Source: a virus
Strand: one strand, 5' to 3'
UHGV virus genome: UHGV-1750711
Length of the DNA: 22,473 bases
Shown here: positions 2,321-18,672 of the stretch, piece by piece
How the letters are laid out: every line of letters starts with the position of its first letter
Numbering within the stretch: position 1 is the stretch's first letter
Notes under the pieces: model-generated
Database searches by the model: none
Told to the model about the DNA's origin: nothing
Seen by the model: the letters and a program-made list of their open reading frames with translations, nothing else
Translations under genes and position numbers: made by a program

Positions 2321-2396
<76 letters not shown>

Positions 2397-2399: not shown

Positions 2400-2474
<75 letters not shown>

Positions 2475-3160: not shown

Positions 3161-3376
3161 ATGAAATCCATGGATAAGTTAACAACGGGTGTCGCCTATG
3201 GCACCTCCGCAGGCAGTGCTGGCTACTGGTTTTTACAGTTGCTCGATAGAGTAACTCCGTCACAGTGGGCTGCAATCGGTGTGCTGGGTAGTCTGGTTTT
3301 TGGCCTGCTGACGTACCTGACAAACCTTTATTTCAAGATTAAAGAAGATAAGCGCAAGGCTGCGAGAGGTGAATAA
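3161..3376 (+). CDS. Class II holin/pinholin, phage 21 S21-like, with MKSM dual start
   Basis: Product [71 protein letters not shown] (71 aa) is near-identical to phage 21 S21 as I recall it. Two predicted TM segments. Stop overlaps the endolysin start. The upstream extension from 3068 is rejected. Confidence 0.9.
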
Positions 3377-3873
3377 TGCCTCCATCATTACGAAAAGCCG
3401 TTGCTGCTGCTATTGGTGGCGGAGCAATTGCTATAGCATCAGTGTTAATCACTGGCCCAAGTGGTAACGATGGTCTGGAAGGTGTCAGCTACATACCATA
3501 CAAAGATATTGTTGGTGTATGGACTGTATGTCACGGGCATACAGGAAAAGACATCATGCTCGGTAAAACGTATACCAAAGCAGAATGCAAAGCACTCTTG
3601 AATAAAGACCTTGCCACTGTCGCCAGACAAATTAACCCGTACATCGAAGTCGATATACCGGAAACAACGCGCGGCGCTCTTTACTCATTCGTTTACAACG
3701 TGGGTGCTGGCAATTTCAGAACATCGACGCTTCTTCGCAAAATAAACCAGGGCGATATCAAAGGCGCATGTGATCAGCTACGTCGCTGGACATATGCTGG
3801 CGGTAAGCAATGGAAAGGTCTCATGACTCGTCGTGAGATTGAGCGTGAAATCTGTTTGTGGGGTCAGCAATGA
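3376..3873 (+). CDS. SAR endolysin (lysozyme with N-terminal signal-anchor-release domain, R21-like)
   Basis: 165 aa. N-terminal Gly/Ala-rich weakly hydrophobic segment ([20 protein letters not shown]) followed by a lysozyme-like domain. Directly follows the pinholin and overlaps the Rz start (ATGA). Confidence 0.9.
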
Positions 3874-4172
3874 ACAGAGTAACCGCGATTATCTCCGCTC
3901 TGGTTATCTGCATCATCGTCTGCCTGTCATGGGCTGTTAATCATTACCGTGATAACGCCATTACCTACAAAGCCCAGCGCGACAAAAATGCCAGAGAACT
4001 GAAGCTGGCGAACGCGGCAATTACTGACATGCAGATGCGCCAGCGTGATGTTGCTGCACTGGATGAAAAATACACGAAGGAGTTAGCTAATGCGAAAGCT
4101 GAAAATGATGCTCTGCGTGATGATGTTGCCGCTGGTCGTCGTCGGTTGCACATCCGCCTCCGGCGTGGATAA
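3870..4172 (+). pseudogene. Rz: Rz (i-spanin) N-terminal part, truncated by a frameshifting deletion (rzpR-like)
   Basis: [21 protein letters not shown]... matches lambda Rz through ...AAGRRRLHI, then diverges and stops (RLRRG*). The Rz C-terminal homology ([27 protein letters not shown]...) continues in the +1 frame. Confidence 0.7.
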
Positions 4173-4299
4173 TGCAGCCTCCCCCCGACTGGCAGACACC
4201 GCTGAACGGGATTATTTCACCCTCCGGGAACGACTGGTAATGATGCAGGCCCAACTTGAAGGTGCTCAGCAATACATAACCGAACAGTGTTTAAAGTAA
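4090..4299 (+). pseudogene. Rz1: Chimeric ORF: Rz1 (o-spanin) signal peptide and lipobox fused in frame to the Rz C-terminal coiled-coil segment
   Basis: Starts [22 protein letters not shown] (Rz1 lipoprotein signal, RBS AAGGAG 9 nt upstream), then reads [21 protein letters not shown]...EQCLK, which is Rz C-terminal sequence. The Rz1 C-terminus (PPPDWQTPLNGIISPS) lies in a third frame at 4178-4240. Consistent with a ~35-nt deletion near 4155. Confidence 0.6.
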
Positions 4300-4436
4300 A
4301 ATCTTAACTACAATATGATTCATTTTGATGATTGTTTCATAAGGAACAGTGAAGTAAGATCTAAGAGGAGTTAAATTTTATACAGTATAATCATAATATT
4401 GCAGCAAGGTGGTTATAATTGAAAGAATATTTAGAT

Positions 4437-5894
4437 ATGAATACATCTCATGTAAGAGTTGTTACTCATATGTGTGGGTTTCTGGTTTGGCTCTATAGTC
4501 TTTCAATGTTGCCACCAATGGTTGTAGCATTGTTTTATAAAGAAAAAAGCCTGTTCGTTTTCTTTATAACTTTCGTTATGTTTTTTTGCATTGGTGGCGG
4601 AGCGTGGTATACAACTAAGAAATCTGGCATTCAATTACGTACCCGTGATGGGTTTATTATAATTGTAATGTTTTGGATTTTGTTTTCTGTTATTAGTGCA
4701 TTCCCTTTATGGATTGACTCAGAACTTAATTTAACGTTCATTGATGCTCTGTTTGAAGGGGTTTCTGGAATAACAACAACAGGAGCAACTGTAATTGATG
4801 ATGTTAGTTCATTACCTCGGGCATATTTGTACTATCGGTCACAGTTAAATTTTATAGGTGGTTTAGGAGTTATTGTTCTGGCGGTTGCTGTATTGCCATT
4901 ATTGGGTATTGGTGGTGCAAAGCTTTATCAGTCAGAAATGCCGGGGCCATTTAAGGATGACAAACTCACTCCCCGCCTGGCCGATACGTCACGGACACTG
5001 TGGATAACTTATTCTTTATTAGGTATTGCTTGTATTGTCTGTTATAGACTTGCAGGAATGCCTTTGTTTGATGCTATTTGTCACGGGATTTCCACAGTTT
5101 CGCTTGGTGGTTTCTCAACTCATAGCGAGAGTATCGGATATTTTAATAACTATTTGGTTGAGCTGGTGGCTGGTTCTTTTTCCCTGCTATCGGCTTTCAA
5201 CTTCACTCTTTGGTATATTGTTATTAGCAGGAAAACGATAAAACCTTTAATCAGAGATATTGAACTTCGTTTCTTTCTGTTAATAGCCTTAGGGGTGATC
5301 ATTGTTACCTCTTTCCAGGTCTGGCATATAGGTATGTATGACTTGCATGGAAGTTTTATTCATTCGTTTTTTCTTGCCAGCTCCATGCTCACTGATAATG
5401 GTTTAGCTACGCAGGATTATGCAAACTGGCCCACGCACACGATAGTGTTTTTGCTGTCGTCAAGTTTCTTTGGGGGATGTATAGGTTCAACTTGTGGTGG
5501 AATTAAGTCACTTCGATTTCTTATACTTTTCAAACAAAGCAAACACGAGATAAATCAGCTTTCTCATCCCAGAGCGTTGTTGAGTGTAAATGTAGGAGGG
5601 AAGATAGTTACAGATCGTGTAATGAGGTCTGTATGGAGTTTCTTTTTTCTTTATACTCTCTTCACGGTGTTTTTTATACTGGTGTTAAATGGTATGGGAT
5701 ATGATTTTCTTACATCATTTGCAACAGTGGCTGCATGTATTAATAATATGGGATTAGGTTTTGGGGCTACTGCATCGTCATTCGGAGTGCTTAATGACAT
5801 TGCAAAATATTTAATGTGCATAGCTATGATTCTTGGTCGCCTTGAAATTTATCCTGTTATTATATTGTTTTCAGGTTTTTTTTGGCGCTCCTAA
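4437..5894 (+). CDS. trkG: TrkG/TrkH-family K+ uptake transporter membrane subunit (prophage-borne moron)
   Basis: 485 aa starting MNTSHVRVVTHMCGFLVWLY. Multi-pass membrane protein with repeated selectivity-filter-like GxG motifs (SGITTTGATV, VSLGGFST, IGSTCGGI). Markedly AT-rich against its flanks. Matches E. coli Rac-prophage TrkG as I recall it; the ORF-track start at 4419 is a TTG and is rejected in favour of the ATG at 4437. Confidence 0.9.
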   Translation: MNTSHVRVVTHMCGFLVWLYSLSMLPPMVVALFYKEKSLFVFFITFVMFFCIGGGAWYTTKKSGIQLRTRDGFIIIVMFWILFSVISAFPLWIDSELNLTFIDALFEGVSGITTTGATVIDDVSSLPRAYLYYRSQLNFIGGLGVIVLAVAVLPLLGIGGAKLYQSEMPGPFKDDKLTPRLADTSRTLWITYSLLGIACIVCYRLAGMPLFDAICHGISTVSLGGFSTHSESIGYFNNYLVELVAGSFSLLSAFNFTLWYIVISRKTIKPLIRDIELRFFLLIALGVIIVTSFQVWHIGMYDLHGSFIHSFFLASSMLTDNGLATQDYANWPTHTIVFLLSSSFFGGCIGSTCGGIKSLRFLILFKQSKHEINQLSHPRALLSVNVGGKIVTDRVMRSVWSFFFLYTLFTVFFILVLNGMGYDFLTSFATVAACINNMGLGFGATASSFGVLNDIAKYLMCIAMILGRLEIYPVIILFSGFFWRS

Positions 5895-6030
5895 TATATG
5901 GCTGATTTATAATTGTGAGTTTAATATTATATTGACTCACTCATTGATCCAATACCTAACTTTACCAGCAACACCTCCGCCCCAGTAGCACTGGCTGCTG
6001 GGGTGCGTTTTATTCATAAAGCAAGGCTGT

Positions 6031-6819
6031 ATGAGCGAGAAATTAAAGATAGTCTATCGCCCATTACAAGAATTGTCACCGTATGCGCACAACGCCAGGA
6101 CGCACAGTACTGAGCAGGTGGCACAACTGGTAGAAAGTATTAAGCAATTCGGCTGGACTAATCCGGTGCTGATTGACGAAAAGGGCGAAATTATTGCGGG
6201 TCACGGTCGTGTTATGGCGGCTGAAATGCTCAAAATGGATTCTGTTCCGGTCATTGTTCTGTCTGGCCTGACGGATGAGCAGAAAAAGGCGTACCGCCTG
6301 GCAGATAATCGCCTACCGATGAATGCTGGCTGGGATGAAGATCTGTTGCGGATGGAGCTGTCGGACCTAATCAATGCTGATTTTGATGTCTCCCTGACAG
6401 GCTTCGGCCCGACAGAAATTGATGAACTGTTGACGGATGTTTTGCCCGGTACAGGAAATAAGGAGGAGCCGTATACGACGAAAATTGATACGCCTGTTTA
6501 TGAGCCGTCGGGCGGTAAACCGGATATCAGTGAACTGTATGACGATACGAAAACTCAGGAGCTGATCAGCCGGATACGTTCGGCGTCCCTTGATCCTGAT
6601 ATTGAGAAATTCCTCCTGTGTGCGGCAGAACGTCACACGGTGTTTAATTTCAGCAGAATTGCGGACTATTACGCTCATGCCCCCGCTGAAATTCAGTGCC
6701 TTTTCGAGGAGTCGGCGCTGGTGATCATTGATTATCAGCAGGCTATTGAAAATGGATTTGTCCGAATGACGCAGCGCATGGTGGCGATCATGCATAGCGG
6801 GGAGGAGGAATATGTGTGA
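6031..6819 (+). CDS. ParB/Srx-fold N-terminal domain protein (ParB-like nuclease domain protein)
   Basis: 262 aa. N-terminus has ParB-N-like motifs (PLQELSPYAHNARTH ... IIAGHGRVMAA ... KAYRLADNRL). Stop overlaps the downstream start. Confidence 0.75.
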   Translation: MSEKLKIVYRPLQELSPYAHNARTHSTEQVAQLVESIKQFGWTNPVLIDEKGEIIAGHGRVMAAEMLKMDSVPVIVLSGLTDEQKKAYRLADNRLPMNAGWDEDLLRMELSDLINADFDVSLTGFGPTEIDELLTDVLPGTGNKEEPYTTKIDTPVYEPSGGKPDISELYDDTKTQELISRIRSASLDPDIEKFLLCAAERHTVFNFSRIADYYAHAPAEIQCLFEESALVIIDYQQAIENGFVRMTQRMVAIMHSGEEEYV

Positions 6820-7744
6820 TGATTTTTGCGCCTTTATTCTGACTCACGGGCGACCGGACAAAGTTCTGACTTACCGGACGTTGCGTCGTGCTGGCTATAC
6901 CGGGAAAATTTTTATCGTTGTTGATGATGAAGATAAGACACGGCATCAGTACATGGCTGAATTTGGTGAACAGGTGCTGGTATTTTCCAAAGCCGATATT
7001 GCCAGTCGTTTTGACGAAGCCGATAATTTTGGTGACCACCGCTCAATTTTTTACGCCCGTAATGCCTGTTTCGACCTGGCAAAACTGGTCGGGTGTAAAT
7101 ACTTCATTCAGCTCGATGATGATTATCACGAGTTCCAGTTTCGGGTGGATCGCAACTATGACCAGGCCTATTTCCCGATAAGGAAACTGGATGCGATCCT
7201 TTCTGAAATGCTGGCGTATTACGAATCAATACCCGCGCTTTCCATCGCTATGTCGCAGGGCGGGGATTTTCTTGGTGACAATGGCGGCCATGCTTCGTGG
7301 GTGAAACGCAAGGCAATGAACAGCTTTATCTGTTCGGTTGATCGACCGTTCTCATTCATGGGGCGCATTAACGAGGATGTGAATACGTACACGAATCTCG
7401 GTCGCCGTGGTGAATTGTTTATGACGATCGGTGCTGTCCAGTTAGGGCAGAAACAGACGCAGAAAAACAGCGGCGGAATGACCGAGCTGTATCTGGATTC
7501 CGGGACCTACGTTAAAAGTTTTTATTCCGTCATGTATGCGCCGTCGTGCGTAAAAATCTCACTGATGGGCGCCAGCCATAAACGCATTCACCATCAGGTC
7601 ACCTGGAACAACGCTGCAGTAAAAATCCTTCACGAAAAATACAGGAAGAAGACACCCTGCATATTAATGGGGGTGACAAATGATTCCGTATTCGAAAGTC
7701 GAGTCTCTGGCAGCGTGCCGGATGACTGCACAACAAATCGCTGA
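6812..7744 (+). CDS. Putative GT-A-fold nucleotide-sugar glycosyltransferase-like protein (DXD motif); function unknown
   Basis: Strong RBS GGAGGAGGA before the ATG at 6812. Motif order typical of GT-A folds: AFILTHGRP, IFIVVDDED, FIQLDDDYHEF. No TM segments, so not GtrB-like. The last ~20 codons overlap the next ORF in another frame, so the true 3' end is uncertain. Confidence 0.6.
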   Translation: MCDDFCAFILTHGRPDKVLTYRTLRRAGYTGKIFIVVDDEDKTRHQYMAEFGEQVLVFSKADIASRFDEADNFGDHRSIFYARNACFDLAKLVGCKYFIQLDDDYHEFQFRVDRNYDQAYFPIRKLDAILSEMLAYYESIPALSIAMSQGGDFLGDNGGHASWVKRKAMNSFICSVDRPFSFMGRINEDVNTYTNLGRRGELFMTIGAVQLGQKQTQKNSGGMTELYLDSGTYVKSFYSVMYAPSCVKISLMGASHKRIHHQVTWNNAAVKILHEKYRKKTPCILMGVTNDSVFESRVSGSVPDDCTTNR

Positions 7745-7931
7745 CGTTCTGGATGTTGATCTGAACCGACTGAAAGAAAATCGGGAAGCAATGACAAATT
7801 TTTACGCGTCCATCCGTAAGGGCAGAGCGAAAGGTGAAGCCGAGCTACGGGCGGCATTGTTTAAGCTTGCCAGAAAAGGGGATGCCTTTGCCCTGCGCGA
7901 ACTACTCAGGGTGGATAAAAATCAGGACTAA
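7680..7931 (+). CDS. Hypothetical small protein (83 aa) immediately upstream of the terminase small subunit
   Basis: ORF with SD-like GGGGGTGA before the ATG at 7680. Overlaps the preceding gene by 65 nt. An alternative start at ATG 7722 is possible. Confidence 0.45.
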   Translation: MIPYSKVESLAACRMTAQQIADVLDVDLNRLKENREAMTNFYASIRKGRAKGEAELRAALFKLARKGDAFALRELLRVDKNQD

Positions 7932-7934
7932 CTG

Positions 7935-9029
7935 ATGAGCAGACCGGACTGGGGGGCGTTGCAGCAGGAGTATATTGCTGAATACACCCGCTCCGGTATA
8001 TCTCCGGTGGCATGGTGTGAAGCAAGGGGACTGAATTACGCAACAGCCCGTCGTTACATCAAAAAACCTCCGAAAAATGCGCAGACAGAAATGCGCAAAA
8101 CTGCGCAAAAAAGTGCGCAGAAAAAATCTGCGCAGACTGCACAAAAGCGGAACGGAAAATCTCAGGAAAAAAAGCCAGTATCCGATGCGTACCTGAATGA
8201 GGGCGATGCGGAAGAAATTTCGTTCTGTCCCGATGAATTCGGCGTTTCTGACCAGCAGGCGAAATTCGCAATGCTGGTTGCCCAGGGGAAAAAACTCGTT
8301 GAGGCATATCGCCTGGCAGGATACGAGTCAGAGGGGAATGCGGCCTACGTAACCGCCAGCCAGCTCCTAAGAAATCCTAAGGTTTTTCGTGCTATCAGCT
8401 ACTTCCGCAATCAGTACCAGAAACGCTATACCGCAGACCTGGATTTACTGGTGAGTCAGTTGATGGCCATTGTCCAGGCCGACCCCAATCAGTTGGCACA
8501 ATTTCGCCGTGTTAACTGCCGTTATTGCTGGGGCGAGAATCATCACTACCAGTGGCGCGATATAGCAGAATTCGATAAGGCAGCGGCGCAGGCCTCCAGA
8601 GATGGCAAACCCGAGCCGGAATATGGTGGCCTTGGCTTTGTTGATAACGCCATACCCAATCCGGACTGCCCGAAGTGCTGCGGTGAGGGAACGGGGCAGC
8701 TTTATATGGCTGATACCACTCTGCTTGATGGGGAAGCGCGGCAATTATATGCAGGGGCAAAGCTCGGAAAATTTGGTGTTGAGATCCTGCTGGAGGATAA
8801 GGCTGCCGCCCGGCGTGAATTGTTGCGTTTGCTTGCTGCTGGTGGGGCTTTATGTGCAGATAAGCGGCTACAGGAACTGGAAATTGAACGGCGCAGAATG
8901 GAAAACCAGAAGCTGCGCAAAGAGATCGAAACGGTGGAAGATAATGAACATCCCCAGCCTGTGGCGATCAATATTAATGTGGTTGATGCCAGAGTAAGGA
9001 GTGATGAAGATGATCTCTCCGACGCTTAA
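7935..9029 (+). CDS. Terminase small subunit (N-terminal HTH, basic repeat linker, C-terminal Cys4 zinc-ribbon-like motif)
   Basis: 364 aa. Contains the recognisable TerS segment LVAQGKKLVEAYRLAGY...NAAYVTASQLLRNPKV and C-x2-C...C-x2-C (CRYC ... CPKCC). Lies immediately upstream of the large subunit. Confidence 0.75.
   Translation: MSRPDWGALQQEYIAEYTRSGISPVAWCEARGLNYATARRYIKKPPKNAQTEMRKTAQKSAQKKSAQTAQKRNGKSQEKKPVSDAYLNEGDAEEISFCPDEFGVSDQQAKFAMLVAQGKKLVEAYRLAGYESEGNAAYVTASQLLRNPKVFRAISYFRNQYQKRYTADLDLLVSQLMAIVQADPNQLAQFRRVNCRYCWGENHHYQWRDIAEFDKAAAQASRDGKPEPEYGGLGFVDNAIPNPDCPKCCGEGTGQLYMADTTLLDGEARQLYAGAKLGKFGVEILLEDKAAARRELLRLLAAGGALCADKRLQELEIERRRMENQKLRKEIETVEDNEHPQPVAININVVDARVRSDEDDLSDA
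8077..8146 (+). repeat. Imperfect tandem TGCGCA-R-AAA repeats within terS (encode the basic KSAQK/TAQK linker)
   Basis: TGCGCA recurs at roughly 8079, 8092, 8102, 8114 and 8129 with 10-15 nt spacing. Confidence 0.6.
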
Positions 9030-10311
9030 TGTGCCTCAGGCGCGATTTCTTTCAATGCCCCATAAATTTAAAGCCTATATTGCTGGTTTTGGCTCGGGCA
9101 AAACATGGGTTGGGTGTGGCGGCATATGCAAGGGGATTTGGGAGCATCCAGGTATAAATCAGGGATATTTTGCGCCAACGTATCCCCAAATTCGCGATAT
9201 TTTTTACCCTACAGTGGAAGAAGTTGCTGCTGACTGGGGATTGAACGTAAAAATTAATGAGGGAAATAAAGAGGTTCACTTTTATTACGGACGCCAGTAT
9301 CGGGGAACCACTATCTGCAGATCGATGGAGAAGCCACAAACGATCGTCGGTTTCAAAATTGGTAATGCGTTGGTGGATGAACTGGACATTTTGCCGAAGG
9401 AAAAAGCCAGAACGGCGTGGCGCAAGATAATTGCGCGTATGCGTTATAAGATTGATGGACTTCGCAACGGTATTGACGTTACAACCACGCCGGAAGGATT
9501 CAAATTTGTCTACGAGCAGTTTGTTAAAGCCGTGCGTGAAAAAACAGAGCTGGCCTCACTGTATGGTCTGGTGCAGGCATCTACTTTCGATAATGAAAAG
9601 AACCTGCCAGCAGATTACATTCCTTCGCTTCTTGAATCATACCCTCCAGAGCTGATTAAAGCCTATCTGCGAGGACAGTTTACTAACCTGACAAGTGGTA
9701 CTGTTTACCATCAGTTTGACCGGAAACTGAATAATTGCGAAGAAGTGGAGCAGCCAGGGGAGTCGATTTATATTGGGATGGATTTTAACGTTGGAAAGAT
9801 GGCGGGAATCGTCCATGTGCTGCGTTTGGGGCTTCCATGTGCGGTAACTGAAATCATCAATGCCTACGATACGCCGGATATGATCCGCATCATTAAAGAA
9901 CGCTTCTGGCTGTATGATGGGAATGATTACCGGAAAGTGAGGGAAATTTATATTTATCCAGATGCTTCCGGGGATTCCAGAAAATCAAGTAACGCAAGTA
10001 CGACGGATATAGCCCAGCTTAAGCAGGCTGGTTTTAACGTTGTGGTGAACAGCTCGAACCCGCCAGTAAAAGATCGCGTTAACTCAATGAATGCAATGTT
10101 CTGCAATGCCAATGGTGAGCGTCGCTATAAAGTTAATGTGAAGCGTTGCCCGTTATATGCCGAATCTCTGGAGCAACAGGTCTGGGATGAGAAGGGGGAG
10201 CCTGATAAAAAATCTGGCAATGATCACCCGAATGATGCCGGAGGTTATTTCATCGTTAAGCAATTCCCTATTGTCAAACCGACCGGAAGAGTCACATCAC
10301 TTCGGATTTAA
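9010..10311 (+). CDS. Terminase large subunit (ATPase/nuclease)
   Basis: Walker-A-like AGFGSGKT near the N-terminus. The ATG at 9010 is preferred because AAGGAG sits 8 nt upstream; the ORF track begins at a GTG at 9001. Confidence 0.85.
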   Translation: MISPTLNVPQARFLSMPHKFKAYIAGFGSGKTWVGCGGICKGIWEHPGINQGYFAPTYPQIRDIFYPTVEEVAADWGLNVKINEGNKEVHFYYGRQYRGTTICRSMEKPQTIVGFKIGNALVDELDILPKEKARTAWRKIIARMRYKIDGLRNGIDVTTTPEGFKFVYEQFVKAVREKTELASLYGLVQASTFDNEKNLPADYIPSLLESYPPELIKAYLRGQFTNLTSGTVYHQFDRKLNNCEEVEQPGESIYIGMDFNVGKMAGIVHVLRLGLPCAVTEIINAYDTPDMIRIIKERFWLYDGNDYRKVREIYIYPDASGDSRKSSNASTTDIAQLKQAGFNVVVNSSNPPVKDRVNSMNAMFCNANGERRYKVNVKRCPLYAESLEQQVWDEKGEPDKKSGNDHPNDAGGYFIVKQFPIVKPTGRVTSLRI

Positions 10312-10313
10312 TT

Positions 10314-11720
10314 ATGGCTGATATATCAACACCCAACCTCGACTATAACGATATGCTGGAGGCGTGGGATATTAACGACGCACTGATGGGCGGTACGCTT
10401 GAAATGCGCAGGCAGGGGGAAAATTATCTCCCAAAATGGCCTAACGAAGATGAAGACGCTTATAAAAAACGCCTGTCTGTGGCTACGCTACTTCCTGTGT
10501 ATGAAGAAAGCATTAAGCAAAATATTGGACGCATATTTGCAGAGCCGACAGTATTGAGTGAGGAAACGCCGGAAAAAATCAGGGAATATGCAGAAAATAT
10601 CGACATGGAGGGGAGCCGACTGGATGTGTGGGCGCAGCAATTTTTCAGCCTCGCATTTCAGTATGGTGTGGCACATGCGCTGGTGGACTATCCACGAACG
10701 GATATGAAGGAGATCCGGACAAAAGCCGATGAAAATGCGGCTGGTGGTCGCCCATACGTTACGATGCTGAATCCACGCCAGGTTATTGGATGGAAATCGA
10801 AAGTTGAAAAAGGGAAAGTTGTTCTTACTGATTTGCGTATAAAAGAGGTCATCATTGTTGATGGTGATGATTTCGGGCAGAAGAAGGTGGAGCAGATCCG
10901 CCATATTATGCCCCGTTGCGTTGAAATTTATCGACGCAGCGAAGGTACTAATGGCGAATCTGTCTGGACGCTTCACGAGTCATGGAATACCAGCCGTGAT
11001 GATATTCCTCTGGTAACACTGTATACGAAGAAAACAGGGTTTATGCGTGGTACACCGCCATTGCTTAATCTTGGCTTGCTGAATATCAAGCACTGGCAAA
11101 GCCAGAGCGAGCAGGACAATATTCTTCATGTTGCCCGCGTCCCATTGCTGGTGGCCTACGGGCTGGACAGGAATGAAGAACTGACGGTTGGTGCATCCAC
11201 CGCTACGATTTTTGAGGACAGAACAAAAAATGGCCTCGAATATGTTGAACATAGTGGGGCAGCGATAGAATCTGGCGAAACATCACTGGAGAAGCTGGAA
11301 AATCAAATGCGTCATGCCGGCGCTAAACTTCTGCGGGCTGAAAATACATCCACCAAATCTGTTGATCAGACTAATGAAGAGCGGATGCAGGAAAACTCGC
11401 CGCTTTATACAATGGCGAACTCCCTCGAAGATGCCCTCGATAATATTCTCCAGATAATGGCGGAATGGATCGGAGAGAGTTGCGGCGGCAATGTGGATGT
11501 GCGCACTGAACTGGATGTATCTGCCCAGGTGTTTGACTCATCCTCCGCGCTGGCTGTTCAGTCATTGCGTCAGGGCGGTGATATACGTCAGATTGATGCG
11601 GTTCGGGTGTTGCAGGCGTTGAAATTTATCGATCAGGATTCCCGTCCAGAGGAAGTGATCGATGAATTAAAAAATCAGAGTGTAATGCTGATGGAAATCA
11701 ATGATGCAAACCGTGAATGA
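10314..11720 (+). CDS. Portal protein
   Basis: 468-aa ORF immediately after terL and before the head morphogenesis gene. Assigned mainly by conserved gene order. Confidence 0.7.
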   Translation: MADISTPNLDYNDMLEAWDINDALMGGTLEMRRQGENYLPKWPNEDEDAYKKRLSVATLLPVYEESIKQNIGRIFAEPTVLSEETPEKIREYAENIDMEGSRLDVWAQQFFSLAFQYGVAHALVDYPRTDMKEIRTKADENAAGGRPYVTMLNPRQVIGWKSKVEKGKVVLTDLRIKEVIIVDGDDFGQKKVEQIRHIMPRCVEIYRRSEGTNGESVWTLHESWNTSRDDIPLVTLYTKKTGFMRGTPPLLNLGLLNIKHWQSQSEQDNILHVARVPLLVAYGLDRNEELTVGASTATIFEDRTKNGLEYVEHSGAAIESGETSLEKLENQMRHAGAKLLRAENTSTKSVDQTNEERMQENSPLYTMANSLEDALDNILQIMAEWIGESCGGNVDVRTELDVSAQVFDSSSALAVQSLRQGGDIRQIDAVRVLQALKFIDQDSRPEEVIDELKNQSVMLMEINDANRE

Positions 11721-12816
11721 ACGGCTGCGTGATGAATCAATTGCTCATGCAGTCTGGATATCTCGCTATAGCACTGGTGTGGCTGCCAGAATGGTGAAAA
11801 CACTGAATGTCAGCGATGCGGAGCTTACATCTCGCCTGTTGGTGGCACTGGACAGCCTCGATCCAAGTAGTTTCACCGTTACGCGCCTGGAGTCACTTCT
11901 GGCGAGTGTCAGAGAGGTTAACCGCGCTGCTATTAACAGCATGTTTACCAGTCTCTCCGGAGAGCTGAACGAGCTGGCAGTTTATGAGGCTGGTTATCAG
12001 TTAAGTCTGTTTGATTCTCTGCTACCTGATTTTGTTGCTGATGTTCATCCTCTGGTTGGTATCTCACCTGATGCACTTTATGCTGCTGCAATGGCGCGAC
12101 CATTCCAGGGACGACTGCTCAGTGAGTGGGCCTCAGATCTTGAGGCGGATCGGCTCAGACGCATAACAAATACGGTGCGTCAGGGTTTTTTGTTGGGGGA
12201 TACCAATGAGCAGATCGCAAGAAAAATTCGGGGACATGTCAGTAAGGGATTTCAGGATGGTGCATTGCAGATGAGTCGGGCTAATGCGGCCAGCATTGCA
12301 AAAACAGCGGTTGGACATCTTGCTGCTACTGCCCGTGAGAGTTTTGCCAGCGCGAATAATGATTTGATTAAGGGTAAGCAATGGTTATCAACGCTTGATA
12401 ATCGTACTACGCCACAATGTCGAATCAGGGATCGCCTCAAATATACGCTGGATAATAAACCTGTAGGTCACAGCGTGCCTTATTTACAGGGGCCGGGGAA
12501 AATTCATTTCTGCTGTCGCTCAACGGAAACGTTCATTCTGAAATCAGCGAAGGAACTGGGTATTGATGTTCGTGATATTTCCCCGGCTGAGCGGGCCAGC
12601 ATGGATGGCGTGGTGGCCGGAGATACAACCTACAGGGAATGGTTTTTGCGCCAGCCTTACACCAGACAAAAAAAGATTGTGGGGGAAACCCGGGCAAAGC
12701 TGATTCGGGATGGCGGTATGTCGCCAGATGAATTTTACACCGATAAAGGCGAATGGCTGACACTGAAGCAACTCCGAGAGCGTGATGCACAGGCATTCAG
12801 AAAAGCAGGGATTTAA
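11701..12816 (+). CDS. Head morphogenesis / minor capsid protein (Mu F / SPP1 gp7-like)
   Basis: 371-aa ORF following the portal gene; start overlaps the portal stop. Assigned by position and general resemblance. Confidence 0.6.
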   Translation: MMQTVNERLRDESIAHAVWISRYSTGVAARMVKTLNVSDAELTSRLLVALDSLDPSSFTVTRLESLLASVREVNRAAINSMFTSLSGELNELAVYEAGYQLSLFDSLLPDFVADVHPLVGISPDALYAAAMARPFQGRLLSEWASDLEADRLRRITNTVRQGFLLGDTNEQIARKIRGHVSKGFQDGALQMSRANAASIAKTAVGHLAATARESFASANNDLIKGKQWLSTLDNRTTPQCRIRDRLKYTLDNKPVGHSVPYLQGPGKIHFCCRSTETFILKSAKELGIDVRDISPAERASMDGVVAGDTTYREWFLRQPYTRQKKIVGETRAKLIRDGGMSPDEFYTDKGEWLTLKQLRERDAQAFRKAGI

Positions 12817-12836
12817 ATAAATCCTTTATTACAACA

Positions 12837-12862
12837 GGCTACCTTCGGGTGGCCTTTTTTAT
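12837..12862 (+). terminator. Intrinsic terminator/attenuator between head morphogenesis and scaffold genes
   Basis: GGCTACC-TTCG-GGTGGCC hairpin (7 bp with one G-U pair, TTCG tetraloop) followed by TTTTTTATT. Confidence 0.55.
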
Positions 12863-12920
12863 TGCTGCGATCCGGATGGTGAGCAGCGCAACTGTCGGAA
12901 GACTTAAACCAGGTACTAAT

Positions 12921-13685
12921 ATGAAACTGAAAACGGTCGAGATTAACGGAAAACAATACGCAGAAATTGATACTGCTGGCCTGCCAGTCTATGTGCACGA
13001 CGATGGTAAAGAAATCGGCTTCGATGCACCGCTGGCGACAAAAAAAATTACAGAGCTTAATGGCGAGGCAAAAAATCATCGCCTGGCTAAAGAAGCTGCA
13101 GAGGAAAAACTGGCTAAGTTTGCCGCTATCGAAGACCCGAAGAAGGCGATTGAGGCACTGGAAATGCTGTCAAAAATCGACCAGAAAAAGCTGATCGGTG
13201 CGGGACAGGTTGACCAGGTTAAGGCAGAAATTACGAAAAATTTTCAGCAGCAATTAGATGAAGAAAAGCAACGCTCTCAGATGCTGGAGACGCAGCTTTA
13301 CGATTCTATGATTGGCGGTAGTTTTGCGGGTTCAAAATATATTGCCGATAAAATTGCGATCCCGGCAGATTTATTACAAGCCCGCTTCGGGCAGGCATTC
13401 AAAGTGGAAGAAGGGAAGATCGTTGCTTATGACGCTTCCGGCAACAAAATTTATTCCCGCGCGAAGCCTGGCGAACTGGCGCAGTTTGATGAGGCGCTGG
13501 AGTTCCTCGTCGAAAATTACCCTCAGAAAGACTACATCCTGAAAGCCAGTGGCAACAATGGCGGCGGCTCCCGTCCGACACAGCATGATATTGGTCAGAA
13601 AACGATGAAACGCTCTGCTTTTGATGCACTGGATGTTGCAGGTAAGCAAAACGCATTGAAAGACGGTATCACAATTGTTGATTAA
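12921..13685 (+). CDS. Scaffolding protein
   Basis: 254-aa acidic, Lys/Glu/Ala-rich, coiled-coil-like protein (EAAEEKLAKFAAIEDPKKAIEALEMLSKIDQKK) immediately upstream of the capsid gene. ATG at 12921; the upstream extension in the ORF track spans the terminator and is rejected. Confidence 0.65.
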   Translation: MKLKTVEINGKQYAEIDTAGLPVYVHDDGKEIGFDAPLATKKITELNGEAKNHRLAKEAAEEKLAKFAAIEDPKKAIEALEMLSKIDQKKLIGAGQVDQVKAEITKNFQQQLDEEKQRSQMLETQLYDSMIGGSFAGSKYIADKIAIPADLLQARFGQAFKVEEGKIVAYDASGNKIYSRAKPGELAQFDEALEFLVENYPQKDYILKASGNNGGGSRPTQHDIGQKTMKRSAFDALDVAGKQNALKDGITIVD

Positions 13686-13783
13686 CACATTTGTCAGCTT
13701 CCGGATGGGAGCTGGTGTCAGGGCTGGATAGCTCATTACTCCATCTATTCACAATTACGCAAATTTTTAAGGAATATTTAATT

Positions 13784-14923
13784 ATGGCTGGAAATACCCT
13801 GACCGGGTTGATCCCGACTATTTACACCGCCCTGGATGTTGTATCCCGTGAGCAGGTAGGTTTTATCCCTGCGGTAGCAAAAAACGCAAAAGCTGACGCC
13901 GCAGCAAAAGATCAGACGGTAACCGCGTCAGTTGCGCCTGAGGCGAAAACCGAAGATATCGTACCGGGGCCGTCAGCTCCGAATACCGGTGATCAAAATA
14001 TTGGCACTGTTGATGTAAAAATTACTAAATCCAAAATGGCGCCGGTTAAATGGAATGGTGAAGAACAACTGGCTCTTGGCCCTTCAGGGACTTACAACAC
14101 CATTCTGGCTGATCAGTTCAAGCAGGCTTTTCGCGCCCTTGCAAACGAGGTTGAGGCTGATCTTGGTGCGTTGTATTTCGGTGCTTCCCGCGCCGTGGGA
14201 ACCGCAGGGACAACGCCGTTTGGTGTTAAAGATGATCTTTCTGATGCTGCTCTGGCTCGTCAGGTTCTGGAGGATAACGGCGCACCGACAACAGATCTGC
14301 AGATGGTGCTTGGTTCCACTGCCATTGCTAATTTGCGCGGAAAACAGTCTGTATTGTTTAAAGTGAATGAATCCGGCACTGAACAGCTACTGCGTGAGGG
14401 CGTGTTGGGGCGTCTGGAGGGATTCAATATTCACAGTTCGGCAGGTGTAAAACGAGCGCCAAAGGTTGCTGCAACAGGTTATCTCGTGAATGGCGAGAAA
14501 AAAGAAGGCGATGTTCTTATTTCCATTGATACTGGTTCGGGGAGTATTTCTGCAGGTCAGATTGTTACGTTCGCTGGCGATCCGAATCAGTATGTTGTGG
14601 CAGCAGCGACCAGCAATCTGATTACTCTTGCAGCGCCGGGACTGCGTCAGGATCTGGCCGATGATACTGCAATCACAGTTGTTGGCTCTTTTACTGCAAA
14701 TATGGCGTTTGATCGCAACGCGTTTCTGCTGGCATCCCGTACTCCGGCAATGCCGGAAGGTGGCGATAATGCTGATGATGTAATGAATGTTACGGACCCG
14801 ATTTCAGGGATTACGTTCCAGATTGCACTGTATCGTCAGTATCGCCAGGTGCGCTATGAAGTTGGACTGGCATGGGGTGTTTCGTCAGTGAAACCGGCAC
14901 ATGGTTGTCTGATTCTTGGTTAA
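13784..14923 (+). CDS. Major capsid protein
   Basis: 379 aa from the ATG at 13784 with RBS AAGGA. Follows the scaffold and is followed by a strong terminator, as expected for a highly expressed coat gene. Confidence 0.8.
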   Translation: MAGNTLTGLIPTIYTALDVVSREQVGFIPAVAKNAKADAAAKDQTVTASVAPEAKTEDIVPGPSAPNTGDQNIGTVDVKITKSKMAPVKWNGEEQLALGPSGTYNTILADQFKQAFRALANEVEADLGALYFGASRAVGTAGTTPFGVKDDLSDAALARQVLEDNGAPTTDLQMVLGSTAIANLRGKQSVLFKVNESGTEQLLREGVLGRLEGFNIHSSAGVKRAPKVAATGYLVNGEKKEGDVLISIDTGSGSISAGQIVTFAGDPNQYVVAAATSNLITLAAPGLRQDLADDTAITVVGSFTANMAFDRNAFLLASRTPAMPEGGDNADDVMNVTDPISGITFQIALYRQYRQVRYEVGLAWGVSSVKPAHGCLILG

Positions 14924-14929
14924 ACATCC

Positions 14930-14955
14930 AAATGGGGCTTCGGCCCCATTTTTAA
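14930..14955 (+). terminator. Strong intrinsic terminator/attenuator after the capsid gene
   Basis: AAATGGGGC-TTCG-GCCCCATTT perfect hairpin with tetraloop, followed by a T-run. Confidence 0.7.
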
Positions 14956-14965
14956 TGGAGGGTAT

Positions 14966-15190
14966 ATGGCCGGATTAACTAAAGAGCAAAGAGCACAGCG
15001 TGAAGCCGCGCAAAAAAATGCAGTGGTGGAGCAAAATGTGGAGCAAATTCAGGAGCCACAAAAAACGCAAATTGAGTTAGTGGTTATGGTGACCGATTAT
15101 CAGATGTTTCCCGGCGCACCAACTATCGCTAATGTTCATCCTGATGAAGTTGACAACTGGAAGGCTCTGGGCTGGAAAACTCAGGAGTAA
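14966..15190 (+). CDS. Hypothetical small head-associated protein (74 aa)
   Basis: RBS GGAGGG upstream of the ATG. Position between capsid and connector genes. Confidence 0.55.
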   Translation: MAGLTKEQRAQREAAQKNAVVEQNVEQIQEPQKTQIELVVMVTDYQMFPGAPTIANVHPDEVDNWKALGWKTQE

Positions 15191-15193
15191 CAC

Positions 15194-15589
15194 ATGATCA
15201 CTTACGTGACCTGTGATGACGTTGATAATGCGTTTGGGAACGCCTGGACGAGTGAGAACGCTAAAAATAAAGCTGTTTTAATGGCTAATGCCTGGCTTAA
15301 TGGCTTCAGCCTGAAAATTAACCCATCCCGTATTCCGGAAGAGGTAAAACTTGCGGGAGCATATGCAGCCAGAATTGCCTCTGTCGGTAAGTTGTTTCAG
15401 CAGAAAAATGATTCAGGCGTTATTATCAGTAAAGCCGTGTCGGCTGACGGGGTCAGTGTATCGAAATCATTTGCTGAATTGCCAGCAAACAGCACTGCAT
15501 TGCTTGAACCCGATTTACAGCTTGCGATAGCACTGCTGAAACCGTACGGACTTAGTCGCTCACAAGTCAGGGTTGTGAGGGGGGGATGA
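15194..15589 (+). CDS. Head-tail connector/adaptor protein (gp6-like, putative)
   Basis: 131-aa ORF with RBS AGGAG. Function assigned from position in the morphogenesis module. Confidence 0.55.
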   Translation: MITYVTCDDVDNAFGNAWTSENAKNKAVLMANAWLNGFSLKINPSRIPEEVKLAGAYAARIASVGKLFQQKNDSGVIISKAVSADGVSVSKSFAELPANSTALLEPDLQLAIALLKPYGLSRSQVRVVRGG

Positions 15590-15972
15590 TGGGGGTTCGT
15601 GAAGAGATTCAGTCAGAGGTTGCCGCTGCTTTTGATGAGGATTTAGCAGACGTCGTGAGTGATTTTTCTGGTTCTTACGTTACGTACCGGAACTGGGATC
15701 CTGTGACTGAAACTGGCGGTGAATCCACAGCAACCTATACCGGGCGAGGCGTGTTGACGCGTTATAAGCTGGGCAGAATTGATGGGATTAATATTTTGCA
15801 TGGTGACCTTAAATTAACTGCTCTGGTATGCGAGGTTACGGATAAACCCGCTGTCGGTCATATTATTGAGATTTATGATTCTGTATCAAGGCAGTTGCAA
15901 CGATACGAGGTAATTACAGCGAGTGTAGATCCTTCCGCATCAGTTTACTCAATCCAGTTAAGGAGAGCGTAA
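15586..15972 (+). CDS. Head closure / head-tail joining protein (putative)
   Basis: 128-aa ORF, ATGA-coupled to the upstream gene. Function by position. Confidence 0.55.
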   Translation: MMGVREEIQSEVAAAFDEDLADVVSDFSGSYVTYRNWDPVTETGGESTATYTGRGVLTRYKLGRIDGINILHGDLKLTALVCEVTDKPAVGHIIEIYDSVSRQLQRYEVITASVDPSASVYSIQLRRA

Positions 15973-16353
15973 ATGGCAAAGGCATGGGATATCGAACCGT
16001 CAATATTTGCCGGGATGATTGAGGAAGATGTGGGGCTGAAAATTCGCTACATCGCTATTCAGATTCTTACTGCTATTGATATTGCTGCTCCGGTTGATAC
16101 CGGGCGTTTCAGAAATAACAACATGGTGTCGTTACAGTATCCCGATTTTGGTATATCTGATAACGTGGATCCGAACGGTACGATTGCGGTTCAGCGTGGG
16201 ATCGGAGTTATTTCGAAAGCTGCAAATTACGGAATTATTTATATCCAGAATAACCTTCCTTATGCAGAGGCTCTTGAAAACGGTCATTCACAACAAGCGC
16301 CAACTGGCGTGTATGCCAACGCTTTTAATGGTGTTTTACAGGCTTACAAATGA
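15973..16353 (+). CDS. Tail completion protein (HK97 gp10-like, putative)
   Basis: 126-aa ORF with RBS AAGGAG. Function by position. Confidence 0.55.
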   Translation: MAKAWDIEPSIFAGMIEEDVGLKIRYIAIQILTAIDIAAPVDTGRFRNNNMVSLQYPDFGISDNVDPNGTIAVQRGIGVISKAANYGIIYIQNNLPYAEALENGHSQQAPTGVYANAFNGVLQAYK

Positions 16354-16742
16354 CGTTTACTGAAATCAGAAATACGGTCATTTCCAGAATGACGGCACAG
16401 ACGGTTATTGATGGAAAAGACGTATTGTATCCGAACGGGCCAACGTTCGATCCTTCCGGTAAGTTAATCTGGGCGCGTTTAAGTAATATTCCCGGGCAGG
16501 CTGGAGTTAATGAAATTGGCGCGGGGCCGGTTGTTTATCGCACGGGGATAATCATTATTCAGTTATTTGTCCCCGCAGGTTCTGGTTCAAAACTCATTAC
16601 TGAGACAGCCGATAAATTGCGGGAACTGTTTGAGTTTCAGGATGACGATCGTCTCAGTTACCAGGTTGTTTCCTCAATAGCCGTTGGCGAAAAGAATGGC
16701 TGGTTCCAGCTTAATCTTCAAATTCCATATCGCGCGCTCTAG
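16350..16742 (+). CDS. Tail terminator / tail tube-associated protein (putative)
   Basis: 130-aa ORF, ATGA-coupled, immediately upstream of the major tail gene. Confidence 0.55.
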   Translation: MTFTEIRNTVISRMTAQTVIDGKDVLYPNGPTFDPSGKLIWARLSNIPGQAGVNEIGAGPVVYRTGIIIIQLFVPAGSGSKLITETADKLRELFEFQDDDRLSYQVVSSIAVGEKNGWFQLNLQIPYRAL

Positions 16743-16768
16743 CGCAATTAATGACATAGGAGGCTCCT

Positions 16769-17719
16769 GTGAGTTCAGGTGCAAAGGTTATCTCGGCATT
16801 TATCCGGGAGACGGTTGCAGGCACTACGCCAGCAAGTGGTGACTGGAGTTTATTAAAACGCACAAGCTGGGGAGTAAAACCCACCCAGAATAAAAGCGAA
16901 AATAATGAGATTGGTGGCTCCCGGATGGCTCAGGGGGCGACGCCTGGCACTGTGGATGTCGGCGGTGATGTTGGTACCAAATTTCGCTGGGGTCAACATG
17001 ATGATTTTCTTGCATCCTGTTTCGGCGCGGAATGGTCAGGCGATTCTCTGACAATGGGGAATGAGCGAATAACATTTTCTCTGGCGACCTATGCGTCCGA
17101 TGTCGGAATTGCCTCTGTCGTCAGAGGAGCGCAGGTTGGCTCATGGAAAATGCAGATCCCTAACGACGGCGATATTACAGCGACCGTAACCTTTGCCGGA
17201 CTGGACTGGGAATCAAAGGCCGATGATACGAATTTTATCAAAGGCGAACCTGTGGATAGTGCAGGAAAGCTACGTTATTCGTTTAAGGAGGTTTCAGCAG
17301 TAAGCCTGAATGGTGTTGCCGGAGGTAACGGTTTTTGTATCGACAGTTTTGATATTCAGTTCGATAACAAACTCCAGACACAGCGTTGTATCGGGACTGG
17401 CTCGCCTTATGCAGGAGCAAATATTCCGACTACTTTTACACCGTCCGGTACGGTGACGCTTTCATGGTCTAAAGCCGCGTGGGAAATCTGGAGTAAAACA
17501 CTGACTGGAGAAACAGTTCCGTTCAGCTTCACGCTTTCGAATGGAGAGGGGGCATACACTTTCAGTTTCCCGAAGGTTCAGGTGTCAGGTGAATGGCCTG
17601 ATGGGGGTAATACCGACATTATCCAGGTTCAATTGAGCATTACCGCAGCAGATGAAGCACCTACGATAACCAGAAAAAAAAGCCTCCCCGGCTGCCGTGA
17701 TCGCAAAAGCCAGTGCTGA
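16769..17719 (+). CDS. Major tail (tube) protein
   Basis: GTG start with RBS TAGGAGG 5 nt upstream; 316 aa. Precedes the G/GT chaperone pair. The 3' end contains an A8 homopolymer, so the C-terminus is uncertain. Confidence 0.75.
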   Translation: MSSGAKVISAFIRETVAGTTPASGDWSLLKRTSWGVKPTQNKSENNEIGGSRMAQGATPGTVDVGGDVGTKFRWGQHDDFLASCFGAEWSGDSLTMGNERITFSLATYASDVGIASVVRGAQVGSWKMQIPNDGDITATVTFAGLDWESKADDTNFIKGEPVDSAGKLRYSFKEVSAVSLNGVAGGNGFCIDSFDIQFDNKLQTQRCIGTGSPYAGANIPTTFTPSGTVTLSWSKAAWEIWSKTLTGETVPFSFTLSNGEGAYTFSFPKVQVSGEWPDGGNTDIIQVQLSITAADEAPTITRKKSLPGCRDRKSQC

Positions 17720-17780
17720 GGCGATTAGTTGATTTTCCGTTATTCCTCCTGTGGTACTGCCCTACAGGGGGACGCATTGA

Positions 17781-18550: not shown

Positions 18551-18672
18551 TTGTTAATTACGTACACTCTGTTACAGAGATGTGATGGTGTCTTTAATTA
18601 AATCGATGATGCTCCTGGAGAAAAGCATTGCGTGGCCTCGTAATCGCTATATCTACTATTATGTCGCCTGAA

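Follow-up and report, generated by a model that had tools for sequence, protein, structure and literature searches.

Morons of lambdoid phages adjoin the lysis genes, an example being lambda bor, which lies just 3' of Rz. The features that trkG would share with such lambda-type morons are a benefit to the host, a deviant base composition, a position flanked by Rz/Rz1 on one side and the packaging end of the late region on the other, and expression from the repressed prophage. Unlike bor-type morons, trkG points in the direction of the late operon, is much larger, and encodes a transporter subunit that needs the host proteins TrkA and SapD; moreover, the hairpin found downstream of trkG is part of the phage backbone and lies outside the inserted unit.

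At the protein level, TrkH of V. parahaemolyticus (PDB 3PJZ; TrkH-TrkA complex 4J9U) and TrkH of E. coli belong to the same family as TrkG and have the same architecture, with four pore loops that bear conserved glycine motifs. The TrkG clade is separate from TrkH and is spread across Enterobacterales. TrkG requires Na+ and carries Na+ as well, whereas TrkH does neither (PMC9898762). In E. coli K-12, TrkG mediates Na+-dependent K+ uptake that depends on TrkA and SapD, and the low GC content of K-12 trkG, its location in the Rac prophage, and its partial repression by H-NS have been published (PMC9898762, in which earlier trkG work by Schlosser et al., 1991 is cited).

The window analysed here is the whole 22,473-nucleotide stretch of UHGV virus genome UHGV-1750711, and its relevant features are collected in Table 1. 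It very probably contains an intact trkG cassette of a Rac-type prophage, that is, a captured TrkH-family K+ transporter subunit carried as foreign cargo with its own leader.

Table 1. Features of the trkG region and its flanks (positions in the window).
Feature	Coordinates	Strand	Details
Holin (EssD / P21 holin S type), first lysis gene	3161..3376	+	Pfam Phage_holin_2_1 E=1.2e-34; PGAP essD in identical genomes
Endolysin (lysozyme RrrD type)	3376..3873	+	Pfam Phage_lysozyme E=2.8e-45; PGAP rrrD
Rz/Rz1 spanin genes, disrupted	3870..4299	+	35-bp deletion at 4153/4154
AT-rich leader, travels with trkG	4300..4436	+	137 bp, 25.5% GC
Leader elements	4386-4391; 4406-4412; 4416-4418; 4419-4421		candidate -10 TATAAT; SD AAGGTGG; TAA stop; TTG
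trkG CDS	4437..5894	+	485 aa from ATG 4437; 491 aa from TTG 4419
AT-rich trailer, only in trkG-bearing prophages	5895..5961	+	GC 0.26-0.35; homology limits
Terminator-like hairpin and T-run	5978..6014 (hairpin 5978-6005)	+	terminator scan; 12-bp stem, 4-nt loop
ParB-like gene (ParB/Srx N-terminal domain), full length	6031..6819	+	Pfam ParB_N; phrog_620 E=3e-90
TAGT-family glycosyltransferase-like gene, paired with ParB-like gene	6812..7744	+	PF20691 TAGT E=3.4e-36; phrog_842 E=2.9e-102
Terminase small (7935-9029) and large (9001-10311) subunits, start of packaging module	7935..10311	+	Pfam Terminase_2, Terminase_6N/6C; PGAP in relatives

Identity and integrity of the cargo gene

The gene is entered in the open reading frame list as 4419..5894 with a TTG start and 491 residues, and translation from 4437 to 5894 encounters no internal stop. 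Its product matches the Pfam TrkH family (PF02386) with E=1e-143 and 479.9 bits (cut-off 27), the match spanning residues 40-483 of the 485-residue protein and positions 3-500 of the 502-position profile; this full-length match and the uninterrupted frame bear out the first-pass annotation, in which the gene was called a complete member of the TrkH/TrkG family. All four pore-loop motifs are present (TTTGA at 113, SLGGF at 222, TDNGL at 319, and NNMGLG at 436), in columns that are invariant or near-invariant in an alignment of 20 TrkG-clade members. Residues 7-485 align to residues 4-485 of the TrkH chains in the PDB (4J9U_A, 3PJZ_A; E about 5e-121), and the PHROG 1916 profile, which has a length of 491 positions, is aligned at 7-491.

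Protein identity is 99% to the E. coli TrkG cluster and only about 41% to enterobacterial TrkH. The DNA is 99.5% identical to that of K-12 trkG (b1363), and over 485 residues only four substitutions separate the two proteins (window versus K-12: I48M, S330N, L341S, C458Y), which agrees with the earlier proposal that this is the gene known from the K-12 Rac prophage. The window residues at 330, 341, and 458 are those of other aligned family members, and position 48 is variable among them. These alignments identify the cargo gene as the trkG known from Rac, a member of the TrkG clade rather than of TrkH. Its placement between lysis and packaging genes likewise stands: it follows holin, lysozyme, Rz, and Rz1 (3161-4299) and precedes the ParB-like, TAGT, and small and large terminase genes (6031-10311).

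Comparison with the K-12 Rac prophage

Positions 3890-6284 and 17891-19650 of the window match K-12 Rac at 95.5-99.5% identity with the order kept; within the first block K-12 matches 4154-6284 at 99.5%, and homology then resumes at 17891. The deletion of 11.6 kb in K-12 Rac corresponds to window positions 6285-17890, which hold packaging, head, and tail genes. The two prophages have the same trkG gene, leader, left neighbour (the Rz/Rz1 remnant), and right neighbour (ynaK, of which the ParB-like gene is the complete form and the first backbone gene past the cargo), and they are collinear from Rz/Rz1 through trkG and ynaK to ydaY and the tape-measure gene. Unlike the window, K-12 Rac is without the rest of ynaK and without the TAGT, terminase, portal, capsid, connector, and tube genes; it is also without holin and lysozyme, homology to the window beginning only at 3890, inside Rz. 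In genomes identical to the window, Rac early genes lie upstream (recE-racC-kilR-sieB in 13P484A and sieB-ydaF in w264). By this homology the prophage is identified as a Rac-type lambdoid prophage that retains the 11.6 kb lost from K-12. Among 5426 complete E. coli genomes, 1553 have trkG and 682 contain 80% or more of the window; trkG in an undeleted Rac prophage is ordinary and is already annotated in hundreds of complete genomes.

The prophage of the window has lesions of its own. Alignment with K-12 Rac and strain 13P484A reveals a 35-bp deletion in the spanin genes that belongs to the window and not to K-12. It truncates Rz, which stops after 100 aa (3870-4172), and creates a second ORF (4090-4299) that begins at ATG 4090 with the signal peptide and lipobox of Rz1 and runs on in frame into the C-terminus of Rz. 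The Pfam Phage_lysis model is accordingly split, with its positions 1-67 matched by one of these ORFs and 78-125 by the other. As counted with a junction-only query, the deletion junction occurs in none of the 5426 complete E. coli genomes; it is also missing from 80 IMG/VR loci. In the tail-tube gene an additional A in an A-run shifts the 3' frame and replaces the last 16 residues, and PGAP labels this gene 'frameshifted' in the identical genomes. The morphogenesis module, which had been described as apparently intact, does keep its packaging, head, and tail genes, but with the tail-tube frameshift and the spanin deletion its intactness was overstated. Searching the full length of the window for known RNA elements with Rfam gave two tRNAs and nothing else.

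Base composition

The trkG coding sequence has a GC content of 0.381, compared to 0.473 for the window excluding 4300-5990. The 358 other windows of 1458 bp have a mean of 0.473, a standard deviation of 0.018, and a minimum of 0.425, which places trkG about 5 standard deviations under the mean and lower than every one of them. In a finer profile, GC drops from 0.47 to 0.30 at ∼4260-4300, is 0.255 in the leader, and returns to 0.49 at ∼5940-6020. Codon usage is shifted in the same direction: ATA and TTA each occur at 33 per 1000 codons in trkG versus 9.7 and 11.6, respectively, in the rest, and CTG accounts for 18% of Leu codons as opposed to 38% elsewhere. Both the sliding-window and the codon-usage analyses are therefore in accord with the lower GC than neighbouring genes noted in the first-pass annotation, and trkG is compositionally foreign.

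In 75 of 80 species-representative loci the GC content of the trkG-clade gene is within 0.05 of that of its flanks, with GC3 values up to 0.79; the exceptions include three Escherichia loci and Pectobacterium, where trkG is 0.083-0.101 below its flanks. Because the genes of 75 loci match their flanks, a low GC content is not inherent in the TrkG protein. The gene was very probably captured from an enterobacterial chromosome.

Leader and start codon

In alignments the leader is identical to that of K-12, and it is conserved together with trkG in E. albertii, including ACAGTATAATCA. Exact TATAAT hexamers occur at 4386-4391 and 4414-4419, as had been pointed out previously, but two copies in so AT-rich a leader barely exceed the chance level (20,000 shuffles gave a mean of 0.34; P=0.045). 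For neither hexamer was a recognisable -35 or an exact extended -10 found in the leader, and neither is called by the promoter scan because a recognisable -35 is missing; the scan yields no excess of sites, with 7 observed versus 8.6 expected in shuffled sequence. The second hexamer reads TA-TAA-T, in which TAA is an in-frame stop and the last T opens TTG 4419, located 6 nt 3' of the SD. It is probably no -10 box, since it overlaps the stop and the ancestral TTG start, and a -10 at this place would leave the SD out of the mRNA. Thus, while both hexamers are present, 4414-4419 probably serves as the spacing that separates the SD from the TTG codon.

At the position equivalent to 4419 the start codon is TTG or GTG in 38 of 82 related loci, and in 32 of those 38 the codon equivalent to ATG 4437 is not a start. 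Judged from these relatives, TTG 4419 is the ancestral start codon, and translation can probably start there, besides or in place of the annotated ATG 4437. In published experiments, a lux reporter is driven by a K-12 fragment that corresponds to about 3960-4436 and stops short of the ATG, and trkG is de-repressed in hns and hns stpA mutants (PMC9898762).

The probable insertion slot

Four relatives (L097, L148, L156, and L164) lack trkG and have the same ParB/TAGT/terminase backbone, the slot being taken up by different lysis genes and an unrelated small ORF. These empty-slot relatives were found only by a protein-guided scan of IMG/VR, and their left side, the lysis cassette, differs from that of the window. 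Homology to them resumes at 5962 in three of the four and at 6008 in one. The trailer is bounded accordingly, homology to chromosomal and E. albertii trkG stopping at 5898 and the shared backbone beginning at 5962. The hairpin (fold energy -23.5 kcal/mol, z=-3.4) and its T-run are kept at the equivalent site in all four relatives without trkG and are therefore phage backbone 5' of the ParB-like gene and not cargo. An empty site represented by a chimeric query of the Rz end and the ParB-like start was found joined in 0 of 5426 E. coli genomes; high-identity matches in a distant DNA search of the phage collection with the ParB/TAGT segment were confined to trkG-bearing records; and no word of 7 nt or longer that might serve as an insertion signature is shared between 4241-4340 and 5881-6030. 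It is nonetheless very probable that trkG is cargo and that the place it occupies, 3' of the lysis cassette and 5' of the ParB-like and terminase genes, is a variable slot.

Relatives, persistence, and spread

The closest relatives outside E. coli, in E. fergusonii (79%) and Pectobacterium (76%), are both chromosomal in non-phage neighbourhoods, and the best relative outside Escherichia is only 77% identical. Chromosomal genes of the clade, present in E. fergusonii, Citrobacter, Pectobacterium, Enterobacter, Serratia, and Xenorhabdus, have the same length and 61-79% protein identity, and have an SD and a TTG or GVG start where the window has 4419. In most species their GC content equals that of the flanks, unlike the window; no queried Rac-type phage protein is encoded within 10 kb of them, and their DNA homology to the window is limited to 4414-5898. 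In E. albertii, all that is left between copD/yebY and rsmF/yebT is the leader with trkG and a 43-nt piece of Rz. Of the 75 near-full-length copies among the IMG/VR loci, 70 are intact ORFs.

The trkG cassette is also found in 15 plasmids at 99.8% identity, on IS26-associated fragments; the conjugative plasmids that bear it are from Klebsiella, Enterobacter, and Citrobacter, and the one plasmid examined is IncA. Every 'phage' record with trkG is a predicted prophage and none is a sequenced virion. Ten ON470xxx 'phages' considered as packaged trkG phage were rejected as PHASTER predictions from draft genomes, and SPF_0923 was rejected as a trkG virion on finding that it contains the flanking chromosomal genes sitABCD-uspF-ompN. 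The suggestion that the gene could be mobilised is thus supported in that it has moved on IS26-associated fragments of conjugative plasmids, but not as regards movement as a phage, for which the records are predicted prophages.

Alternative explanations

The low GC content might in principle arise from the composition of a hydrophobic protein or from local mutational bias, with no horizontal acquisition of trkG, and TrkG is indeed rich in Phe, Ile, and Leu, which have AT-rich codons. However, GC3, which is mostly independent of the protein, is 0.325 in trkG versus about 0.47 in neighbouring genes, and orthologues with 62-72% identical proteins reach GC3 of 0.6-0.79 in GC-rich hosts. The non-coding leader and trailer are low in GC as well, and relatives with the same backbone are without trkG, so that this origin of the low GC is hardly credible. 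A functional decay of the gene deserves only slightly more weight: trkG here would be a non-functional remnant, as the spanin and tail-tube lesions around it and the existence of frameshifted copies elsewhere (5 of 75 near-full-length copies in IMG/VR loci, as well as the copy on plasmid pABWA45_1) might suggest. In the window, however, the ORF is complete with every pore-loop motif, its four substitutions are the only ones relative to a functional K-12 TrkG and in three cases match family members, and several genomes have an annotated protein of identical sequence, WP_001741602.1. That trkG is such a remnant is accordingly regarded as very unlikely.

It is also improbable, if somewhat less so, that trkG is a late-operon passenger lacking its own promoter, which Q-antiterminated polymerase would transcribe once the prophage is induced and not before, and which would be useless to the lysogen. 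Its orientation with and position directly 3' of the lysis genes, the Q-like gene at 1325-1987, and the failure of the scan to call a canonical sigma-70 promoter in the leader would all be expected of a passenger. Yet K-12 is without the Q-holin-lysozyme region of the window and its trkG is expressed and functional, and the K-12 fragment that drives lux ends before the ATG (PMC9898762) and has a leader identical to that of the window. The reading of trkG as an intact, captured cassette with its own leader is thus strongly preferred.

Proposed function and implications

In a lysogen, transcription of trkG would start at a promoter in the roughly 475 bp that precede the gene, with 4386-4391 as the most plausible -10, and this transcription would be partly repressed by H-NS/StpA, by analogy with K-12, in which the leader is identical. 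With host TrkA and SapD, whose genes are located outside the window, the product is predicted to mediate Na+-dependent uptake of K+ (and Na+), again as in K-12. During lytic growth trkG may also be read within the Q-antiterminated late transcript. The gene would benefit the host and not the virion, and such a benefit would explain both its intact survival in decaying prophages (K-12, E. albertii) and its capture by plasmids. We tentatively raise the possibility, on balance a doubtful one, that the cassette is self-sufficient and positively selected, outlives the phage in K-12 and E. albertii, and is spreading between genera via IS26-associated prophage fragments in conjugative plasmids, with a product that may comprise 491 residues from TTG 4419. 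More speculatively still, expression of a K+ importer from the late operon might also help the phage in lytic growth.

That trkG is AT-rich foreign cargo in the Rac prophage is already known: published accounts of a foreign, low-GC, H-NS-modulated trkG in Rac go back to 1991, and its functional characterisation dates from 2022. Possible gains for annotation are the upstream TTG as a start codon and the interpretation of the '-10' at 4414-4419 as an SD-to-start spacer. The value of the locus is modest and lies in its being a clean worked example of prophage domestication, in which a useful transporter is kept while the surrounding phage erodes differently in each lineage, and the cassette is later captured by plasmids.

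Identity and base composition of trkG

The trkG product matches the Pfam TrkH family (PF02386) over nearly its full length (E = 1e-143) and the solved TrkH structures 3PJZ and 4J9U (E about 5e-121), and PHROGs contains a TrkG family, phrog_1916. All four pore-loop motifs (TTTGA, SLGGF, TDNGL, and NNMGLG) are found, and their columns show little or no variation when 20 clade members are aligned. The first-pass annotation described a complete, AT-rich transporter gene of lower GC than its neighbors, and both parts of that description hold: no stop codon falls within 4437–5894, and the GC content of the coding sequence is 38.1% (32.5% at third codon positions, GC3), with 25.5% in the leader directly 5' of it (4300–4436) and 47.3% in the remaining window. 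In 358 other windows of 1458 bp, GC is never lower than 42.5% (mean 47.3%, standard deviation 1.8%). At fine scale GC begins to fall where Rz ends (stop codon at about 4300) and rises again at about 5940–6020. Codon choice follows the shift, with ATA and TTA increased and CTG and GGC decreased, so that the sliding-window GC and codon usage proposed as checks both deviate from the rest of the window. A second compositional outlier is a small ORF at 232–492 (86 aa, 38.3% GC, phrog_340, function unknown) upstream of a NinB-like gene.

The low GC is not due to the protein sequence, because genes of the trkG clade have GC within 0.05 of their flanks in 75 of 80 species-representative loci, with GC3 reaching 0.79. 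Among the exceptions are the three Escherichia loci and that of Pectobacterium, AT-rich outliers whose GC is 0.083–0.101 lower than that of their flanks. TrkG-type proteins are widespread across Enterobacterales at 61–79% identity. The nearest relatives outside E. coli, in E. fergusonii (adjoining porin genes) and Pectobacterium (after ychF), occupy chromosomal neighborhoods without phage genes, indicating that Rac trkG was captured from a family of chromosomal paralogues in enterobacteria. The best match outside Escherichia is 77% identical, too distant to point to a donor.

Features in and around the trkG region of the window
Feature	Position	Strand	Remarks
tRNA-Thr(TGT)	2321–2396		phage-borne, between Q-like gene and lysis cassette
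tRNA-Gly(TCC)	2400–2474		phage-borne, between Q-like gene and lysis cassette
35-bp deletion in Rz/Rz1 overlap	4153/4154 (within 3870–4299)	+	Rz truncated, Rz1 fused
trkG, longer ORF	4419–5894	+	TTG start, 491 aa
trkG coding sequence	4437–5894	+	conventional ATG, 485 residues, uninterrupted translation
AT-rich trailer	5899–5961	+	between end of trkG homology and shared backbone
Hairpin and T-run	5978–6014	+	-23.5 kcal/mol, z = -3.4
ParB-like and TAGT-like genes, overlapping	6031–7744	+	full-length, ParB/Srx N-domain; TAGT-family glycosyltransferase-like, Pfam PF20691
Tail-tube gene	16769–17719		one extra A in A-run near 17690

Comparison with K-12 Rac and other E. coli genomes

The rzpR/rzoR-trkG-ynaK segment of the Rac prophage of K-12 MG1655 corresponds to 4154–6284 at 99.5% identity and the match picks up again from 17891, indicating that K-12 Rac has the same arrangement minus an 11.6-kb deletion. 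Missing from K-12 are the rest of the ParB-like gene, of which ynaK is a truncated remnant, the TAGT-like glycosyltransferase, TerS, TerL, portal, head-morphogenesis and scaffold-like genes, a P22-type capsid gene, connector genes, and the tail-tube gene. The ParB-like and TAGT-like genes lie directly upstream of the terminase genes and may be a DNA-modification or packaging-associated pair; the latter also belongs to phrog_842, named 'beta-glucosyl-HMC-alpha-glucosyltransferase'. The two TrkG proteins differ at four residues (I48M, S330N, L341S, and C458Y); in the family alignment other members share the window residue at 330, 341, and 458. Position 48 varies.

The segment 4200–6100 is present in 1553 of 5426 complete E. 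coli genomes, at 99% identity or more in 1517 of 1557 matching records, and is annotated there as trkG, with a lysis protein on one side and ynaK on the other. Of complete E. coli genomes, 682 contain 80% or more of the window, and the representative genome of E. ruysiae has it as well. PGAP annotation already covers all genes of this undeleted, trkG-bearing form; the gene, its location, and its composition anomaly are already known and routinely annotated. The first-pass finding is real and correctly identified, and requires correction only in detail, namely in how the second hexamer is read, which unit the terminator belongs to, and how intact the prophage is.

Expression and translation start

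K-12 trkG (38% GC, within Rac) encodes a protein that mediates Na+-dependent K+ uptake as well as Na+ uptake; its mRNA increases in hns and hns stpA mutants, the wild-type gene is not fully silenced, and a promoter-lux fusion is active (PMC9898762). The lux fragment, as defined by the supplement primers, is equivalent to roughly 3960–4436 of the window and ends directly before the ATG (PMC9898762). A promoter therefore lies within this interval in K-12 and, the leader being identical, should do so here as well.

Both TATAAT hexamers reported earlier, 4386–4391 and 4414–4419, are exact matches, although two in a leader of 25% GC are only marginally above chance (P = 0.045) and a promoter scan called neither. 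The first is kept in E. albertii, inside ACAGTATAATCA, and is a candidate -10 element whose use would keep the Shine-Dalgarno sequence (SD) in the mRNA. The second reads TA-TAA-T, in which TAA is the in-frame stop bounding the ORF and the last T opens TTG-4419. An SD, AAGGTGG (from 4406), lies 6 nt upstream of this TTG. The equivalent codon is TTG (28) or GTG (10) in 38 of 82 related loci, in 32 of which the ATG-equivalent codon is a non-start; an ATG equivalent to that at 4437 occurs only in the four Escherichia loci. The PHROG profile has 491 positions, matching the length in amino acids of many clade relatives. On these grounds we read the second hexamer as the spacer between the SD and an ancestral TTG start codon. 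Either 4419 or 4437, or both, may serve as the translation start, and the protein may therefore have 491 residues.

Boundaries of the trkG unit

No exact empty site was found, since none of the 5426 complete E. coli genomes joins Rz directly to the ParB-like gene. Of 78 IMG/VR loci whose upstream sequence sufficed for a judgment in a protein-guided scan, 74 carry trkG and four lack it. In the latter, homology to the window restarts at 5962 (three) or 6008 (one), and the slot is filled by another lysis set together with a small unrelated ORF, suggesting that the position left of the ParB-like gene is a variable cargo slot, or hot spot. In trkG-less relatives (locus L097, 5530–5877 of that locus), an uncharacterized ORF of ~100 aa precedes the ParB-like gene, with a different endolysin and spanin set.

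DNA homology of the chromosomal E. fergusonii trkG to the window is limited to 4414–5898, and that of E. albertii to 4257–5898, comprising the final 43 nt of Rz, the leader, and trkG. Together with the resumption points at 5962 and 6008, these limits point to about 4300–5898 as the unit that travels with trkG. The strong downstream hairpin has a counterpart in trkG-less relatives, and is therefore a backbone element rather than a terminator brought in with trkG.

Integrity of the prophage

The morphogenesis module had been called apparently intact. Every packaging, head, and tail ORF in the window is open. Two lesions are nevertheless present. The extra A in the tail-tube gene replaces its last 16 residues relative to an intact relative (strain PSJ-07), and PGAP labels the gene 'frameshifted' in window-identical genomes. 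Alongside this, the 35-bp deletion ends Rz after 100 aa and joins the signal peptide and lipobox of Rz1, in frame, to the C-terminus of Rz. Its junction occurs in none of the 5426 complete E. coli genomes and none of 80 IMG/VR loci, so that the deletion is a mutation private to this sequence or else an error of assembly. Damage in close relatives includes IS3 in TerS, IS1, IS30, and a frameshifted sieB, and TerL of strain PSJ-07 has an internal stop. The window is without tail tip, immunity, replication, and integration genes. Eleven trkG-bearing 'phage' records were considered as virions and rejected, none being a sequenced virion; phage-mediated transfer of trkG is accordingly regarded as a possibility only.

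In relatives, directly past the tail-fiber end of this prophage, lies the sitABCD iron/manganese transporter operon (locus L168, 46070 onward; locus L170, 28143–31592, followed by uspF and ompN), which may be a second transporter cargo or a neighboring island.

Spread and retention of trkG

The segment 4300–5960 occurs at 99.8% identity on 15 plasmid records (NZ_CP022155.1, NZ_CP055012.1, and 13 others), 12 of them predicted conjugative, with hosts including E. coli, Citrobacter freundii, Klebsiella quasipneumoniae, K. michiganensis, Enterobacter kobei, and E. roggenkampii. Both pABWA45_1 and a Klebsiella IncA plasmid hold trkG in the same prophage fragment, much reduced by deletion (int-xis, a few early genes, an rrrD remnant, Rz, trkG, a ynaK remnant, and tfa). 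IS26 borders the fragment at either end in pABWA45_1; in the Klebsiella plasmid it borders the one side observed. The trkG cassette has thus moved by a non-phage route, as an IS26-associated fragment on plasmids. Also on the fragment are three chromosomal-looking genes, namely dps and genes for an ArsR-family regulator and an oxidoreductase.

In E. albertii NBRC 107761 (9837–11480 of its locus), trkG (92% amino acid identity, 38% GC) and its leader lie between copD/yebY on one side and an NleF-like effector gene, a phosphatase gene, rsmF, and yebT on the other. Together with the 43 nt of Rz, trkG and its leader look to be essentially the sole remnant, between core genes, of a prophage that has eroded almost completely. 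The plasmid copies, the E. albertii remnant, and the intact ORFs in 70 of 75 near-full-length trkG copies from IMG/VR loci would fit long-term retention of a host-useful gene.
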